Part shown: positions 18,231 through 40,153 of the stretch, piece after piece | How the letters are laid out: each line of letters opens with the position of its first letter | Position numbering within the stretch: the first letter of the stretch is position 1 | Source: a bacterium | Lineage (GTDB): Bacteria; Electryoneota; Electryoneia; Electryoneales; Electryoneaceae | DNA length: 64,000 nt | Direction: 5' to 3' | NCBI GenBank assembly: GCA_020444425.1 | Contig: JAHLLB010000001.1 | Coordinates: 266,938 to 330,937, forward strand | Notes under the pieces: model-generated | What the model saw: the letters and a program-made list of their open reading frames with translations, nothing else | Told to the model about the DNA's origin: nothing | The model's database searches: none | Made by a program: the position numbers and the translations under genes

Positions 18231-19790
18231 ATGGCGAGCATCGAAGACAAACTCAAAGAATTGCACTCGCTTCGTGAACAGGCCCGGATGGGTGGCGGTG
18301 AAAAACGGATCGAGGCGCAGCACGGCAAAGGCAAATACACGGCGCGTGAACGTATCGAACGTCTCCTCGACGAAGGTTCGTTTGAAGAGTTCGATATGTT
18401 TGTCACGCACCGTCAAAGCGAATTCGGGCTGGACAAACAGCAGTACCTGAGCGACGGTGTTGTCACCGGGCATGGCACGATCAACGGCCGGCAGGTGCTG
18501 GTCTTCTCGCAGGATTTCACCGTTCTCGGCGGTTCGCTGGGCGAAATGTTCGCGAAGAAGATCGTCAAGATCATGGACTACGCGGTCAAGGTTGGCGCAC
18601 CAGTGATCGGCTTGAACGATTCCGGCGGCGCACGCATCCAGGAAGGAGTCTTGTCGCTGGGTGGGTACGCTGACATCTTCCTCAAGAACGTGATGGCGTC
18701 CGGCGTTGTCCCGCAGATCAGCGCGATTCTCGGCCCGTGTGCCGGCGGCGCGGTCTACTCCCCCGCCCTGACTGACTTCACGATCATGGCCAAGGGCATC
18801 AGCTACATGTTTGTCACCGGCCCGAAGGTAGTGAAGACGGTCACGCACGAAGACGTGACGGTCGAGGAGCTTGGTGGTGCGCAGGTACACGCAACCAAGT
18901 CCGGCGTGACGCACTTCGTCGCCGAGGATGAGGACGACACCTTCAACCTGATCCGCAAGCTGCTCACCTTCCTGCCGCAGAACAACATGGAAGAAACGCC
19001 GATCCTGTCATGTTCCGACCCGATCGATCGTCTCGAGGACGACCTCAACTACATCGTCCCGACCGATCCGAACATCCCGTACGACATGCGCAACGTGATC
19101 GAGCTCGTTGTCGATGACAGCGATTTCCTCGAGGTCCGGCGCCAGTGGGCTCCGAACCTGATCACCGGTTTCGGTCGTTTCAATGGGCGCGCAGTGGGCA
19201 TTGTCGCCAACCAGCCGAGTGTGTTGGCGGGTGTATTGGACAATAAGTCCAGCCGTAAGGGCGGAGCGTTTGTCCGTTTCTGCAACGCCTTCAACCTGCC
19301 GGTGGTGACCTTTGTCGATGTACCCGGCTTCATGCCCGGTACGGTGCAGGAATACGAAGGCATCATCCTCAACGGCGCGAAGTTGCTGTATGCGTACAGC
19401 GAATGCACCGTTCCGAAGGTGACCGTGATTACGCGCAAAGCCTACGGCGGCGCGTACGACGTCATGAGCTCAAAGCACCTGCGCGGTGACCTGAACTATG
19501 CGTGGCCGACGGCGGAAATCGCGGTGATGGGTCCGCAGGGTGCGGTGGAAGTGTTGTACAGCAAGGAACTGAGGGAGCTGGAAGGCGACGCGAGAGCGAA
19601 ATTCATTAAGGAGAAGGAAGATGAATACCGCAACAAGTTCGCCAATCCGTACAACGCCGCCAGAAACGGTTACATCGACGATGTGATCGAACCGCGCAAC
19701 ACGCGTTTCCGCATCATTCGCGGCCTCGAATCACTGGCCGGCAAGCGGGATTCCAACCCGCCGAAGAAGATCGGGCTGGTTCCATTGTGA
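18231..19790 (+). CDS. mmdA: Acyl-CoA carboxyltransferase (methylmalonyl-CoA decarboxylase alpha subunit / propionyl-CoA carboxylase beta family)
   Basis: ORF 17889..19790. The likely start is ATG at 18231 ([31 protein letters not shown]...). Carboxyltransferase hallmarks are [32 protein letters not shown] and [14 protein letters not shown]3-rich. Lies in an operon with gamma, biotin-carrier and beta subunits. Confidence 0.85.
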
Positions 19791-19888
19791 GATATGAGAT
19801 TTGAGACTTGAGATGTGAGAAACTGCAAGGACATGAAGTTGTTATTTCTCATATCTCATATCTCATATCTCACATCCCAAATCTGAGG
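19788..19888. repeat. Inverted pair of heptamer-repeat arms forming a long imperfect hairpin between mmdA and the gamma subunit gene
   Basis: Left arm TGAGATATGAGATTTGAGACTTGAGATGTGAGAA. Right arm TTCTCATATCTCATATCTCATATCTCACATCCCAAATCTGAG, made of (ATCTCAT)n units. The arms are approximately reverse-complementary and separated by a 24-nt spacer. Confidence 0.7.
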
Positions 19889-19899
19889 TTCTACGACTC

Positions 19900-20364
19900 A
19901 TGTACGGTTTTGCAGGCATAGAAGCGGGGAACGGGCTGACGTTGATGCTGGCAGGAATGCTGGTGGTCTTCGCCGCCCTGGTGACCCTCCTTTTCCTGAT
20001 GAAGTTTCTCAAGAAGGGGTTGGACGCGCAGCGTGCGGCGGTAAACCGGCGCCAGAAAGCACGTGAGGCGAAGGCGGCCGCGGCACGTGGTGACACGGTC
20101 GACGAGCCCGGCATCCGTGCCATCGAAGGTCCGGAAGGGCACGACATCAGCGGTGTCGAAATTGCTGCGATTGCGCTGACGTTGCTGTTCGAATCGGAGC
20201 AGGTGCACGACAACGAGTCGATGGTGTTGACGTTGCACGGGCTGCCGAAACCTTACAGCAACTGGTGGCAGGGTCGAATCGATCCGGCGTGGCGTGCTGC
20301 GGTGACCAAGGGACGTCCGGCAACATTGCAGACATCTGACCCGGAACGCGGGACCAGGGTGTAA
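19900..20364 (+). CDS. Na+-pump decarboxylase gamma subunit (OadG family membrane anchor)
   Basis: 154 aa with a single N-terminal TM helix (GLTLMLAGMLVVFAALVTLLFLMKF) and a soluble tail (GVEIAAIALTLLFE) like OadG/MmdD. Position between the alpha and biotin-carrier genes supports the call. Confidence 0.55.
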   Translation: MYGFAGIEAGNGLTLMLAGMLVVFAALVTLLFLMKFLKKGLDAQRAAVNRRQKAREAKAAAARGDTVDEPGIRAIEGPEGHDISGVEIAAIALTLLFESEQVHDNESMVLTLHGLPKPYSNWWQGRIDPAWRAAVTKGRPATLQTSDPERGTRV

Positions 20365-20466
20365 GAAACAACTACCGTCCACGAAAGACACAAAAGTTAG
20401 CGAAAATAGTACAAAGAGTTTTTGAGTGGCATCAAGTAGTTTTTTTCGTTCGTTTTCGCGGTTTTC

Positions 20467-37850: not shown

Positions 37851-37929
37851 GTCTCTGATGCTATAGGCATCAGTCCGTTTTCCGCAGCCAGTTGTCTCAA
37901 GACTCAGGACTCAGGACTCCTGTGCTGGC

Positions 37930-40128
37930 GTGAACGTTTGGTCACCCCTATCTTCCCGCATGCCTTCAACCCCTGGAAACAAGAAAGCCGCGCCGCTCGA
38001 ACTGCCGGTCGCGTACCTGCGCGGGATCGGTCCACGCAAGGCCAGCGCATTCAAGCAGGTCGGCGTAACCACGCTCCGTGACCTGCTGTACTACGTTCCC
38101 CGCCGTTACATCGACCGCAGCACCGCGACGAAAATCGGGTCCATCCGTGGCGAGACCAAGGGTGAGGTCTCGATCATCGGCCGGATCACCGAAGTGCAGA
38201 TGGTCAAGGGCCGGGGTGGAACCAACCGTTACGAAGCCGCGCTCGACGACGGCACCGGCACGTTGCACCTGATCTGGTTCCGGCAGACCAACCGTGTCCG
38301 CAAATGGATCACCGAGGGCTTTTCGGCTGTCTTCTCGGGCAAGGTGAACATGTATGGCGGCATCCCGCAGATCGCGCACCCGGAGGTGATGTCGCTGTCC
38401 AAGGGCGAGGCGGTGGATCTGCAGCAAGGCAAGGGCCGTTGGATCGCTTTGTACCCGGGCGGGAAAGAGTTCGACAAAGTCGATCTCGACCAGCGCGCGT
38501 TGCGAAACCTGATGGACCGCGCGGTTGGCGAATATGTCCATTCGGTGCCGGAAATCTGGCCGCAGCAGTTGCTCGACCAGTTCAAGCTGCCGACGCTCAG
38601 CGACGGACTGCGCATGGTACACCGTCCGCACAACGCGAAGGAGCGTGACCTCGGTTGGAAACGGCTCAAGTTCGACGAGCTCGTGTTGTTCCAGTTGCTG
38701 TGGTCATGGTCACGACGGCGGAACCGTGACAAGGTGAAAGGGATCGCCTACCCGGAAGTCGGCGGGTTGACCCGCGCTCTGATCGAGGAAAAGCTGCCGT
38801 TCCAGTTGACGGATGCTCAGAAACGGGTCATGCGTGAGATATGGAACGACATGAAGCAGCCGCACCCGATGACACGTCTGTTGCAGGGCGATGTTGGCTC
38901 GGGCAAGACGGTGATTGCGTTGATCGCGATGTGTATCGCCGTCGAAAATGGGCACCAGGCGGCGTTAATGGCGCCGACCGAAATCCTCGCTGAACAGCAC
39001 TGGCTGACCAGTCGTAAATTCCTTGACAATCTTGACATCCACGTCGACCTGCTCACCGGCAGCATGTCGGAAAAGGAGCGGCGCGGCAAGTACGAGCGCC
39101 TGTCGCAAGGCCAGCCGGGAATTATCATCGGCACGCACGCCCTGATCCAGGACAAGGTGAAGTTGCCGAATCTCGGCCTCACCATCATTGACGAACAGCA
39201 CCGTTTCGGTGTCGCGCAACGATTGAAGCTGATGGAACCGGACCATGTCAAGGGCCGCAATTTCGACGGGTCGGATCTGCTGCGGCCGGACGTGCTGGTA
39301 ATGACCGCGACCCCCATCCCCCGCTCGCTGGCGTTGACGCTGTACGGCGACCTCGATGTCAGCCGGTTGGACGAAATGCCGCCGGGACGTGGAATGGTCA
39401 CGACCAAGGCCTACAACGCCGATTTCGAGCGGCAGAAAATTTATCAGCAGATTGCGGGACGAGTGCGCAAAGGCGACCGTGCCTATGTCATTTTCCCGCT
39501 CGTGGAACAATCGGAGAAGCTCGACCTCGCCGCTGCGGAAACCGGGCATGAGGAGTTGTCCGCCGGTGCCTTCAAAGGGCTGAAGGTCGGCCTGTTGCAC
39601 GGCCGGATGAAGATGGAGGAAAAGGCGGAGGCGATGCGCAAGTTCGCGTCCGGGGAAACGCCGGTGCTGGTCTCAACGACCGTTGTCGAAGTCGGTGTCG
39701 ATGTGCCGGAAGCGACGATCATGATCATCGAACACGCCGAGCGTTTCGGCCTTAGCCAGCTGCACCAGTTGCGTGGGCGAATCGGACGTGGCGGACGCGA
39801 TGGCTTCTGCTGCCTGTTCTTCTATCCCCCACTCGGCCGCACGGCGGAAGGGCGATTGTCGATCATGCAGAAGACGACGGACGGCTTTGTCATTGCCGAG
39901 GAAGATCTGCGGCTGCGCGGCATGGGTGACTTTTTCGGTGTCAAGCAGAGCGGTCTGCCACCGTTGCGTTTCTCGGATATCGTCGAGGATCAGGATCTGG
40001 TGCGTCTCACGCGCAAGGTCGCGGATGACCTGATCAACCAGAGTCCCGACCTGAGACAATTCCCTGCGCTCGAAAAGGAATTCCGCCGGACGGCGCTGGG
40101 GCGTGTTGGCTGGCTCGAGGCGGGGTGA
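37930..40128 (+). CDS. recG: ATP-dependent DNA helicase RecG
   Basis: Wedge-domain N-terminus. Walker A GDVGSGKTVIALIAM. DEQHRFGV (DEAH-box variant). Helicase C motifs (QLRGRIGRGG). Length is typical for RecG. Confidence 0.9.
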   Translation: MNVWSPLSSRMPSTPGNKKAAPLELPVAYLRGIGPRKASAFKQVGVTTLRDLLYYVPRRYIDRSTATKIGSIRGETKGEVSIIGRITEVQMVKGRGGTNRYEAALDDGTGTLHLIWFRQTNRVRKWITEGFSAVFSGKVNMYGGIPQIAHPEVMSLSKGEAVDLQQGKGRWIALYPGGKEFDKVDLDQRALRNLMDRAVGEYVHSVPEIWPQQLLDQFKLPTLSDGLRMVHRPHNAKERDLGWKRLKFDELVLFQLLWSWSRRRNRDKVKGIAYPEVGGLTRALIEEKLPFQLTDAQKRVMREIWNDMKQPHPMTRLLQGDVGSGKTVIALIAMCIAVENGHQAALMAPTEILAEQHWLTSRKFLDNLDIHVDLLTGSMSEKERRGKYERLSQGQPGIIIGTHALIQDKVKLPNLGLTIIDEQHRFGVAQRLKLMEPDHVKGRNFDGSDLLRPDVLVMTATPIPRSLALTLYGDLDVSRLDEMPPGRGMVTTKAYNADFERQKIYQQIAGRVRKGDRAYVIFPLVEQSEKLDLAAAETGHEELSAGAFKGLKVGLLHGRMKMEEKAEAMRKFASGETPVLVSTTVVEVGVDVPEATIMIIEHAERFGLSQLHQLRGRIGRGGRDGFCCLFFYPPLGRTAEGRLSIMQKTTDGFVIAEEDLRLRGMGDFFGVKQSGLPPLRFSDIVEDQDLVRLTRKVADDLINQSPDLRQFPALEKEFRRTALGRVGWLEAG

Positions 40129-40132
40129 TCTG

Positions 40133-40153
40133 AGTGGTGAGTGGTGAGTAAAA
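40133..40153. repeat. Heptamer tandem repeat (GAGTGGT)x3 immediately after the recG stop
   Basis: TGAGTGGTGAGTGGTGAGTAA. Confidence 0.7.

Follow-up and report, generated by a model that had tools for sequence, protein, structure and literature searches.

Strand-polarized heptanucleotide tandem arrays at gene boundaries of an FCB-type bacterial genome

The 64-kb stretch of DNA analysed here (the window) contains 14 heptanucleotide arrays across 10 intergenic regions. It belongs to a T9SS-bearing genome, as recognized in the first-pass annotation and borne out by five proteins with Por_Secre_tail domains. Ten of the 14 arrays begin 0-9 nt past a stop codon, which bears out the earlier statement that a stop lies within a few bases upstream of most of them. 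The location at gene 3' ends is accurate for these ten, but not for a second class just upstream of start codons, three arrays that end 4-11 nt before the start, nor for the remaining one (32192-32254), which lies further upstream in the ValRS leader.

The first post-stop array comprises eight degenerate CGGTNNN units (3625..3683, plus strand) located 9 nt downstream of the TPR stop codon (gene 1501-3615), with 23 G and 7 C residues and a sense RNA of -10.3 vs -3.3 kcal/mol for the antisense; this is the degenerate tract previously noted near 3630-3680. The next two have the minus strand as their sense strand, namely CAGTNNN x8 (4803..4858), 7 nt past the stop of the T9SS cargo gene 4866-6527(-), with an invariant core and a variable spacer (p = 0.014), and CGGTNNN x7 (14923..14971), which abuts the C10 peptidase stop (gene 14972-18406, minus strand). 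Between the carboxyltransferase and OAD-gamma genes, two plus-strand arrays form the arms of a long hairpin: TGAGATN x5 on the left (19788..19822), the first unit of which contains the carboxyltransferase stop codon, and the pre-start TCTCATA x6 on the right (19847..19888), ending 11 nt before the OAD-gamma ATG (19900). Tandem Repeats Finder (TRF) delimits this inverted pair as 19788-19820 (TGAGATT x4.7) and 19847-19884 (TCTCATA x5.4). The OAD-beta stop is abutted by TCGGTAA x13 (23553..23646, plus strand), made up of five degenerate and eight perfect units (TRF: ATCGGTA x13.1 at 23555-23646). The spacer containing it is bounded by the hairpin GGGGACAC..GTGTCCCC (23684..23713), which on the minus strand resembles a terminator for SodC.

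Three nucleotides past the carbonic anhydrase stop lies a double array on the plus strand (25277..25350), GGGCTCT x6.1 (25277-25319) followed by CAGACCG x4.4 (TRF: AGACCGC, 25320-25350); both arrays had been identified earlier, the former with a copy number of five that does not stand. They match the G3N4 G-quadruplex pattern. The array terminates at a plus-strand hairpin directly 3' of it, GTGGCCGTGTCTG..CAGACGCGGCC (25358..25386), which belongs to a recurrent REP-like family. On the minus strand, nTGTGAG x4 (25629..25663; TRF: CTCACAT x3.9 at 25636-25662) abuts the TAG that closes the CoA-binding gene 25664-26080(-). The plus-strand ValRS leader combines the distal, perfect, G-rich and G·U self-pairing TGCGGAC x9 (32192..32254; TRF x9.0; sense -33.0 vs antisense -9.7 kcal/mol) with a pre-start GCTCATN array of 4-5 units (32267..32301), the end of which is 4 nt from the ValRS GTG (32306). 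The array TnTGAGG x4 (35520..35554, sense strand minus; TRF: CTCAAAC x4.3 at 35521-35550) lies just past the HlyIII stop (gene 35556-36218, minus strand; assignment at 5e-46) and is followed by A8 and a hairpin; on the plus strand the adjoining hairpin with a T8 run (35488..35519) is terminator-like. This array was initially taken to lie upstream of DUF4139 and was reclassified as following the HlyIII stop. Seven nucleotides past the DUF4139 stop is a degenerate plus-strand array (37741..37803; GGGCTGC, GGTCNNN and other units; TRF: 37741-37756), whose halves pair as a G·U-using hairpin. A terminator-like hairpin of the GTGGCCGTGTC family (37813..37847, plus strand) separates it from the pre-start GACTCAG x3.4 (37894..37921; TRF: 37896-37919), which ends 8 nt before the RecG GTG at 37930, and 2 nt past the RecG stop is TGAGTGG x2.7 (40131..40149), both on the plus strand.

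Scans of the window for periods 4-13 support the strict 7-nt period noted earlier, period 7 being the sole over-represented non-coding repeat period. Exact runs number eight at period 7 and zero at periods 4-6 and 8-13, with dinucleotide shuffles giving 0.0, and at a cut-off of 17/21 matches the degenerate arrays number nine at period 7 and zero at any other. All arrays of the first-pass annotation were recovered, by TRF or, for the CGGTNNN tract, by the degenerate scan; absent from it were 4803-4858 (ACTGNNN x8 as read on the plus strand), 14923-14971 (ACCGNNN x7) and 32267-32301 (GCTCATN). Its description of STRR-like, non-coding heptanucleotide repeats in an FCB-type genome, which are not in-frame coding tracts, is likewise upheld. 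Placement at gene boundaries exceeds that expected of uniform placement (Fisher combined p = 3e-8 for 12 entries, with 35520-35554 left out), and convergent spacers of 1250 nt and 390 nt have one array at each extreme.

The units consist of a 4-nt core (CGGT, CAGT, TGAG/CTCA or GGGC) and a variable 3-nt spacer. In the degenerate arrays the variation falls in three contiguous spacer positions (clustering p = 0.003-0.06 per array), and in the orthologous arrays of L001, a 4.5-Mb contig from the long-read genome of a related MAG with a MutS2 93% identical to that of the window, the core is retained and the spacer altered. The notion that the period is fixed but the sequence free is thus inaccurate in detail, and while units do differ from site to site, they fall into few core families. 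The core of the pre-start arrays (CTCA) is complementary to a post-stop core.

A strand rule distinguishes the two classes. On the sense strand G exceeds C in 12 of 13 post-stop sites and C exceeds G in all six pre-start sites; these class labels were drawn in part from the same data, and the only true replication, a small one, comes from the five intergenic arrays of L041, an independent stretch of the L001 genome, where the rule also held. At 12 of the 13 post-stop sites the sense RNA is more stable than its antisense (-33.2 vs -0.6 kcal/mol for OAD-beta, -38.2 vs -15.7 for DUF4139 and, at a further site, -42.3 vs -2.2), many of these arrays relying on G·U pairs and folding only as sense RNA. 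The six pre-start arrays are C/A-rich and unstructured, with sense RNA less stable than antisense in every case. Pairing of arrays builds the hairpin at 19780-19905 (-45.8 kcal/mol, z -5.6) and that of the DUF4139 array with its terminator (37730-37860, z -6.6), and in L005 (3204-3350) complementary G/T-rich and C/A-rich arms likewise fill the interval from a stop to the following start. About half of the post-stop arrays show no folding (TGAGTGG, TGTGAG, GGTGTGA and TTTGGTG, 0 kcal/mol), and hence a hairpin role is not general. As both orientations occur inside the single 390-nt convergent spacer, polarity follows transcription rather than replication, which argues against a purely DNA-level role in recombination or replication of the kind suggested earlier.

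Array abundance is restricted to the window/L001 species pair, with 12 per 64 kb in the window and 10 period-7 arrays in 22.5 kb of L001, vs 0-2 per ~20 kb in relatives. The excess at period 7 is repeated in L001 and in L041, which has six such arrays and 0-1 at the other periods that are not multiples of 3. At 63-77% protein identity, relatives carry few arrays or none at these positions, so the arrays are dispensable. Within the pair, a CGGTNNN array also follows the C10 peptidase ortholog of L001 (L040, 13012-13059), and the OAD-beta array has 13 units in the window vs 16 in L001, a difference of exactly 21 nt, in agreement with the slippage considered earlier. At the distal ValRS site TGCGGAC x9 is replaced by TTTGGTG x7.6, and the pre-start ValRS array has 7-8 units in L001. 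In the more distant relative L002 (GACTCAR)4 abuts the ValRS GTG, in both L001 and L002 (GACTCAR)n reaches the same OAD-gamma ATG, and CTCA leader arrays persist down to 72-73% MutS2 identity (L002 and L003). Neither L001 (z -0.7) nor L002 retains the stop-to-start hairpin of 19788-19888. Conservation of some array blocks exceeds that of synonymous sites: against a 4-fold site identity of 0.706 between window and L001, the degenerate 35-nt CGGT block of 23553..23646 is identical at 35/35 positions (p = 5e-6) and the RecG leader array at 22/23 (p = 0.004).

The arrays are a new member of a kind already known, the bacterial heptanucleotide repeats, which are poorly understood. An excess of such repeats occurs in many bacteria, with heptamer arrays in some Bacteroidetes (PMC4679880, PMC4692102). 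The two array positions of the window are paralleled in Flexibacter litoralis by forward TAACTGA arrays that lie 1-43 nt ahead of starts and by a single reversed array immediately past a stop (PMC4679880), and the whole-unit change between window and L001 is paralleled by 7-nt indels between Cyanothece strains.

A reading to which we would give about an even chance of being correct is that these STRR-like arrays were made by slippage and retained in untranslated regions for a role at the RNA level, the value of 7 itself not being accounted for. Strand slippage would create arrays and resize them in whole 7-nt steps, and they would be tolerated only in short gene-boundary spacers that are presumably transcribed but untranslated. 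Which array strand can sit where would then be set by selection on RNA, to which the strand rule points. After stops, the sense strand is G/U-rich and C-poor, and many arrays fold, by themselves or by pairing with another array, into long hairpins that depend on G·U pairs and so form only in the sense transcript. The arrays occupy the gap from the stop codon to the terminator-like hairpin and probably extend or buffer a 3'-end stem protecting or terminating the mRNA. Units with TGA or TAA also close all three frames within ~21 nt, an effect present in only four of the nine post-stop genes scored. Before starts, the sense strand carries the complementary G-poor nCTCAnn or ACCGnnn units, which, being unstructured and poor in start codons, might provide an open leader. 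By these routes the arrays could influence mRNA stability, termination or translation.

A neutral origin, with a slippage-prone replisome or repair defect depositing functionless filler between stop and terminator and transcription-associated mutation causing the strand bias, is unlikely, though it has several observations in its favor. These are the restriction of abundance to one species pair, the replacement of units at orthologous sites, and the abutment of arrays on constrained elements on both sides, as predicted by deletion bias with local expansion. Heptanucleotide excess in many unrelated bacteria has also been ascribed to polymerase slippage (Mrazek 2007, as summarised in PMC4679880 and PMC4692102). 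However, a single mutation bias cannot yield opposite polarities in leaders and trailers presumably transcribed from the same strand, and the blocks conserved far above 4-fold sites and the clustering of mismatches in three spacer positions with the core preserved also argue against this origin.

The core-plus-spacer architecture with its significant clustering of variation, the strict period, the orientation rule and the occurrence of both direct and inverted arrangements could alternatively reflect tracks onto which a protein loads in a register of 7 nt (RNA or ssDNA) or 7 bp (dsDNA), with which the persistence of CTCA leader arrays in relatives also agrees. The protein suggested earlier, one that reads the period instead of the sequence, would be of this kind, and the five or more different cores argue against a single sequence-specific reader. 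RNA precedents are HutP-type recognition of UAG-N4 repeats and cold-shock-domain proteins, with a footprint of ~7 nt. This alternative appears rather improbable, given that at least five unrelated cores (CGGT, CAGT, TGAG, GGGC and GCGGAC) would call for several readers or one very loose reader, that no candidate protein was identified, that close relatives are without arrays at the same sites, and that in the strongest arrays G·U-dependent sense folding favors RNA structure over a bound single strand. Heptad arrays are nevertheless documented in parS of pSM19035, where the ribbon-helix-helix omega repressor/ParB polymerises on contiguous heptads, direct or inverted (PMC9499535, PMC2441792), and MacGregor proposed that S1, Csp or CsrA binds the TAACTGA repeats.

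Contingency loci, in which copy number would switch neighboring genes on and off, are a very improbable explanation: hypermutability is expected of perfect 6-9-unit tracts and copy number differs between species, but most arrays are post-stop rather than in promoters or coding starts, their neighbors are housekeeping genes (ValRS, RecG, the OAD operon and carbonic anhydrase), and the Logan contig L004, recorded in 6 samples, is identical to the window across 19788-19888. Assembly artefacts of low-complexity reads, an objection raised by the first-pass annotation, are practically inconceivable and are refuted by independent assemblies: short-read assemblers do break at such tracts, the short-read contig L004 ending inside the CGGTAAT array as expected of a k-mer assembler, but two arrays of the window are identical in this independent contig, the long-read-scale L001 carries arrays at orthologous intergenic sites, and length differences between conserved flanks are exact multiples of 7.

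The heptad arrays are real and statistically solid. Fourteen of the 39 rows reported by Tandem Repeats Finder for the window have a period of 7, and a scan for exact runs gives eight at period 7 and none at periods 4-6 and 8-13, with 0.0 exact period-7 runs in dinucleotide-preserving shuffles. A degenerate scan based on lag-7 identity in 21-nt windows yields 9-13 period-7 arrays depending on the threshold, the strictest of which leaves no array at any other period. All arrays listed in the first-pass annotation were recovered at essentially the same coordinates, but the list had overlooked three, at 4803-4858 (ACTGNNN), 14923-14971 (ACCGNNN) and 32267-32301 (GCTCATN). 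The arrays consist of head-to-tail copies of a unit within the 5-11-nt range of the LSSR class of Mrazek et al., are longer than chance allows, and reach 13 units in the window and 16 in its sister genome (L001, a 4.5-Mb contig of a related MAG with 93% identical MutS2). The excess at 7 nt for which a genome tally had been proposed is seen in the 64 kb of the window and about 67 kb of the sister genome, the part of the genome covered, in both of which period 7 predominates. All 14 window arrays are intergenic on the corrected gene map and are confined to 3.6-40.2 kb, with none in 40-64 kb, which consists mostly of tightly packed operons, even in its few gaps of 100-335 nt. That they are assembly artefacts, a concern voiced at the outset, is practically out of the question: an independent short-read contig from another data set (L004, Logan) is base-for-base identical to the window over the inverted pair at 19788-19888, with no copy-number difference, and breaks off within the CGGTAAT tract, the behaviour expected of a k-mer assembler. 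The sister genome, syntenic with the window over 16.8-39.3 kb, has 10 period-7 arrays over 22.5 kb, and they occupy the same intergenic sites.

The gene map, drawn from Pfam matches and codon-position GC content, places a TPR protein on the plus strand (1501-3615), five T9SS cargo genes on the minus strand (4866-18406), and a carboxyltransferase (to 19790) followed by OAD-gamma, a biotin carrier, an unknown gene and OAD-beta (19900-23552) on the plus strand. Beyond these lie SodC (minus, 23803-24507), carbonic anhydrase (plus, 24644-25273) and a CoA-binding protein (minus, 25664-26080), and then, on the plus strand, MutS2 (26544-29297), a TPR protein and an M23 peptidase (29385-31943), ValRS (32306-34972) and a HicAB-like cassette (about 35000-35480). 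The long ORF at 35493-37733 is a chimera of a minus-strand HlyIII family gene (35556-36218; Pfam match 5e-46, codon-position GC content) and a plus-strand DUF4139 gene (36393-37733; signal peptide at 36393), and would be mis-annotated by automatic longest-ORF calling. Since it holds two genes, the array at 35520-35554 follows the HlyIII stop, and its reading as a leader array of the DUF4139 gene is ruled out. RecG (plus, 37930-40128) completes the array-bearing region. T9SS sorting domains are present, in keeping with the earlier description of a T9SS-bearing host of FCB type; the nearest named homologs come from Zixibacteria, FCB-group MAGs and Ca. Hatepunaea, and the lineage is an uncultured FCB-group bacterium. 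The HicB/HicA-like toxin-antitoxin cassette between ValRS and HlyIII has a counterpart in the sister genome (about 18230-18770); the two cassettes are not alignable by blastn while their flanks are 88-90% identical, which suggests, at the level of sequence, that the cassette has been replaced at a fixed site.

Array placement is tightly bound to gene boundaries. Ten arrays start 0-9 nt past a stop codon, as the first-pass annotation had noticed for most of those it listed, and three end 4-11 nt ahead of the start codons of OAD-gamma, ValRS and RecG, with a further array, 32192-32254, farther up the ValRS leader. The two long convergent spacers, 3616-4865 (1250 nt) and 25274-25663 (390 nt), each have one array at either extreme, beside each stop. 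Under uniform placement within spacers, the positions of the 12 entries tested would have a combined probability of 3e-8. On their distal side, post-stop arrays usually extend as far as a conserved tail or a hairpin resembling a terminator. Four tandem copies of a 207-236-nt unit (3864-4724), each starting with the hairpin GATGTCCCCCGCGCAGGAAAGGGGACATG, occupy the middle of the 1250-nt spacer; Rfam does not match this unit, and a single copy is no more stably folded than its shuffles (z -0.3). An Rfam gathering scan of the whole window gave no matches, an E-value scan of 3600-4900 gave a chance miRNA match only, and no tRNA or tmRNA was found in the window. Two REP-like hairpin families, GGGGACAC..GTGTCCCC and GTGGCCGTGTC..GACGCGGCC, lie beside arrays in the window (23685-23712, 31995-32022 and about 32085-32115; 25358-25386 and 37813-37847) and recur in L001, in L002 and in another relative (L035), often followed by GTTGCTCT rather than a U-run. 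In the sister genome, a module of array, hairpin and tail past the carbonic anhydrase gene is tandemly duplicated (8488-8740). Not every post-stop repeat has period 7: an imperfect 17-18-nt tandem repeat (GTACTTCTTTTCTACTTTC, about 3.4 copies) lies just past the minus-strand SodC stop (23731-23791) and is conserved in the sister genome (6949-6993).

Orienting each array by its neighbouring gene, with orthologous sites counted once, reveals a simple strand rule. At post-stop sites G exceeds C on the sense strand in 12 of 13 cases and C exceeds G in one, whereas C exceeds G at all six pre-start sites (12/13 versus 0/6, p ~3e-4 by a hand hypergeometric calculation). The predicted folding of sense relative to antisense RNA is likewise better at 12 post-stop sites, with one tie and none worse, and worse at six of six pre-start sites; for some post-stop arrays the gap is large (-33.2 versus -0.6, -42.3 versus -2.2 and -38.2 versus -15.7 kcal/mol). 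Pairing within these arrays uses G·U and therefore exists in the sense RNA only. Both orientations occur within the 390-nt spacer 25274-25663; hence, the polarity follows transcription and not replication, ruling out a replication-strand account. Double-stranded motif families are shared by the two roles, reading TGAG after stops and CTCA before starts (CTCA-N3-CTCA-N3-CTCA has 12 matches against 0 expected). An independent region of the sister genome, about 1 Mb away and reached via a paralog (L041), contains six period-7 arrays, with other periods not divisible by 3 giving 0-1. Its spacer 8168-8498 presents a G/T-rich (CAGTNNN)9 followed directly by C/A-rich (ACTCACN)4 (ACCGNNN)6 toward the next start, and its minus strand presents a G-rich array just past the GatB stop and an ACCGNNN array toward the next start. 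Thus, the strand rule holds there and extends to the CGGT/ACCG and CAGT families. A CGGTNNN array is also found at the stop of the sister-genome ortholog of the C10 peptidase gene (L040 13012-13059).

Contrary to what the first-pass annotation had supposed, the units are not of free sequence. In degenerate arrays four contiguous positions are kept and the other three vary (CGGT+NNN at three genes, CAGT+NNN, TGAGA+NN and CTCA+NNN), and mismatches cluster in the 3-nt block beyond chance (p = 0.003-0.06 per array). Comparison with the sister genome shows the core retained and the spacer altered after the carboxyltransferase gene (TGAGATN in the window versus TGAGGTG), before OAD-gamma (CTCATAT versus CTCARGA) and after carbonic anhydrase (CAGACCG versus CAGACTT), while in the ValRS leader the unit is swapped outright, from nine copies of TGCGGAC in the window to 7.6 of TTTGGTG. 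The array after OAD-beta has a unit common to both genomes, with 13 copies in the window and 16 in the sister genome, a difference of exactly 21 nt between conserved flanks; the variation in unit count between the two genomes is thus in whole 7-nt steps, as scored at this array alone, the other sites being too diverged. Set against an identity of 0.706 at 528 4-fold degenerate sites, a 35-nt degenerate block of the CGGT array is identical at 35/35 positions (p = 5e-6), the RecG leader array at 22/23 (p = 0.004), and the 38-nt tail past the CGGT array at 37/38. Given that identity is far above that of 4-fold sites at some arrays and units are replaced at others, some arrays are constrained and others turn over completely.

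Across the seven loci compared, array density drops fast with distance from the window: 12 period-7 arrays in 64 kb of the window and 10 in 22.5 kb of the sister genome give way to two genuine ones in 22.5 kb of L002 (a third match is a masked N run) and one in 17.7 kb of L003, both relatives with 72-73% identical MutS2, and to two in 20 kb, one in 20 kb and none in 22 kb in loci of other relatives (L035, L036 and L039, respectively). Ahead of OAD-gamma and ValRS, (GACTCAR)n leader arrays are kept in L001 and L002, and a similar array is found in L003. Relatives otherwise show short vestiges with the polarity seen in the window: in L035, TGA-GTTGGGAGAC TGGAGTC TGGAGAC after the carboxyltransferase gene and, between a convergent pair, nnTGTRG x4, a hairpin and CCTCACA CCTCAGA CCTCAGG; in L039, TGAGGCT TGAGTCT, a hairpin and then CCTCATACC. 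A metagenome scan with MutS2 returned a single relative, at 31% identity, and hence no population series. A separate small element, GTCATCCTGAACGnAGTGAAGGATC, recurs between genes across the clade (window 14733-14797, L001 about 3027-3055 and 8775-8800, L002 about 4050-4075, L003 10838-11021), and in L003 forms a 21-nt tandem array of 8.8 copies.

The TGAGATN and TCTCATA arrays at 19788-19888 form a single long predicted hairpin (-45.8 kcal/mol, z -5.6), the segment 37730-37860 folds with z -6.6, and the CGGTAAT and TGCGGAC units are quasi-palindromes that self-pair when G·U is allowed. In a distant relative of 69% GC (L005, MutS2 31% identical), a hairpin has as its two arms G/T-rich heptads that follow the MutS2 stop and C/A-rich ones, complementary to them, that precede the next start. 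Since the TGAGTGG, TGTGAG, GGTGTGA and TTTGGTG arrays give no fold at all and neither L001 (z -0.7) nor L002 preserves the 19.8-kb hairpin, structure is common and not universal. Translational coupling through the 19788-19888 hairpin, although attractive for the alpha-to-gamma pair, was rejected, because that hairpin is absent from L001 and L002 and the gene ahead of most arrays is the last in its transcription unit.

For the function of the arrays, which we infer, the best reading combines a slippage generator with transcript-level selection as a filter, and our confidence in it is about evenly balanced. Strand slippage that moves in 7-nt steps would be the generator, as has been suggested for the excess of heptanucleotides in many bacteria, and the filter would be selection on the transcript, for which the polarity, the sense-specific folding and the conservation argue. 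After stops, C-poor, G/U-rich arrays would be tolerated or useful, many of them extending hairpins ahead of terminator-like stems, and stop-triplet units may close all frames within about 21 nt, as they do in four of the nine post-stop genes scored. Ahead of starts, G-poor, unstructured arrays with few start codons would be tolerated or useful. Three-frame stops as the function itself were rejected on that same proportion, in a comparison confounded by operon neighbours. A post hoc link with a last sense codon NGG (several GGGGTGA), seen in 7 of 9 array-bearing genes then scored versus 1 of 29 others (p = 2e-5), was also discarded, since the stop contexts read in L001, L035 and L005 show it for only about 1 in 7 of their array-bearing genes. 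Shine-Dalgarno mimicry fails because AGGA occurs in GACTCAG units and is absent from other leader units, and GANTC methylation sites are confined to GACTC units. A resemblance to NusA KH-domain RNA (ACUCAA) was considered and dropped.

Set beside slippage filtered on the transcript, a purely neutral origin of the arrays as a by-product, with no such filter, seems rather improbable. Somewhat more doubtful is an orientation rule that would cross phyla, with AC(Y)(S)A-core heptads (ACTCA, ACCGA, ACTGA) sense in leaders and their complements (TGAGT, TCGGT, TCAGT) sense after stops. Some conserved machinery that works in a 7-nt register would read them, for instance the ribosome together with S1, or else a cold-shock-domain chaperone or a termination factor, so that slippage-generated arrays would be recruited as tunable translation-entry and -exit elements and not merely tolerated. 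The like rule for TAACTGA in Flexibacter, the obedience of three core families, an independent region included, and the conservation of degenerate cores above the neutral rate are compatible with this idea and do not prove it. It also appears unlikely that the arrays are tracks along which a protein binds in a register of 7 nt or 7 bp. Such proteins have a real precedent in the omega (ParB) protein of pSM19035, which binds contiguous 7-bp units, 7-10 per site, direct or inverted (PMC9499535, PMC2441792), and which demonstrates that a protein can read this register, not that one does so here; that plasmid system has a single conserved heptad (WATCACW) in promoter regions. The number of different cores here speaks against a protein track, and no candidate heptad-binding protein, whether of the omega/ParB type or of the HutP type on RNA, is encoded beside arrays in the window. 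Phase variation is very improbable, because the arrays lie past stops or before starts of housekeeping genes, rather than within coding sequence or surface-gene promoters, and none is overlapped by a promoter-like site.

Since 2007 it has been asked why many bacteria favour heptanucleotides as their long repeat unit, and whether such arrays act. According to summaries of Mrazek et al. 2007 in later papers (PMC4679880, PMC4692102), LSSRs have 5-11-nt units with heptanucleotides the most abundant, are in excess in many bacteria, and were proposed to originate by slippage; as summarised there, that work is an abundance survey in which gene-boundary anchoring, sense-strand polarity or core-plus-spacer units are not described. 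The arrays studied here share each feature of heptanucleotide long SSRs tested, being over-long, tandem, intergenic and patchy in phylogeny (plentiful in one lineage, all but missing from its near relatives), and are a further case of this known class, not a new one. The added value is descriptive, namely the boundary anchoring, the replicated sense-strand polarity, the core-plus-spacer units, and the turnover and constraint between sister genomes. The locus is a natural experiment in which two sister genomes share gene boundaries with arrays and differ in units and copy numbers, slightly farther relatives are without arrays, and a simple strand rule separates leader from trailer arrays. If only slippage plus filtering is at work, it would be a well-documented further example in a new lineage.

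The closest parallel in orientation is the TAACTGA repeat of marine Beggiatoaceae, cyanobacteria and five Bacteroidetes (MacGregor 2015, PMC4679880): Flexibacter litoralis has 12 sets in forward orientation that lie 1-43 nt ahead of start codons, and a further set, of seven, directly past a stop in reverse orientation, and Cyanothece strains differ by 7-nt indels. This is the rule seen here, with analogous CTCA-core arrays before OAD-gamma, ValRS and RecG, and TTACCGA, the reverse complement of CGGTAAT, differs from TAACTGA at two positions. However, TAACTGA itself occurs in the window as two single copies and no tandem one, several cores replace the one dominant unit, most arrays are post-stop, and the genome does use Shine-Dalgarno-like sequences at many genes. 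The G-quadruplex-forming GGGAATC and GGGGAYT repeats of Xanthomonas and Nostoc (Rehm et al. 2015, PMC4692102) are likewise G-rich intergenic heptamers, in part inverted pairs between convergent genes, which keep their positions from one close species to another and change in length and sequence. Here (GGGCTCT)6 at 25277-25319 would fit the G3N4 pattern, the four-run match being 25267-25293 only and at the level of pattern, but this is the one array with G3 runs, and most cores (CGGT, TGAG, CAGT) cannot form three-tetrad quadruplexes. The arrays are also accompanied by REP-like hairpin families. REP/BIME palindromes follow stop codons, often between convergent genes, and their RNA hairpins probably protect the mRNA upstream; in a REP family a single imperfect palindrome is scattered in many copies, whereas the present arrays are locus-specific tandem 7-nt units.

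The first-pass annotation had likened the arrays to the STRR heptanucleotides that Mazel et al. reportedly described in heterocystous cyanobacteria in 1990 and that PMC4692102 mentions. The likeness stands for tandem 7-nt units at many intergenic loci, with several unit families per genome and some inverted pairs, and fails for unit and host: the STRR units CCCCAGT, TTGGTCA and CAACAGT have no tandem copy in the window, the host belongs to an uncultured FCB lineage of another phylum, and the arrays are tied to stop and start codons and obey a strand rule. A viral scan with (GACTCAR)3 matched unrelated AT-rich contigs with (AAGACTC)n just past an ATG and was set aside. Two of these from IMG/VR (L006 11716-11800, L022 9574-9800) are viral or prophage contigs with about 12 to 35 units directly past the ATG, an arrangement that looks like a phase-variable gene start, with the heptamer of the leader arrays in an unrelated lineage. 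L005 contains several heptad arrays (3204-3350, 7502-7549, 9017-9050) with CTTGGTC and ACTG-core units among them; CTTGGTC is one base from the cyanobacterial STRR2 (TTGGTCA), and similar cores recur across phyla.
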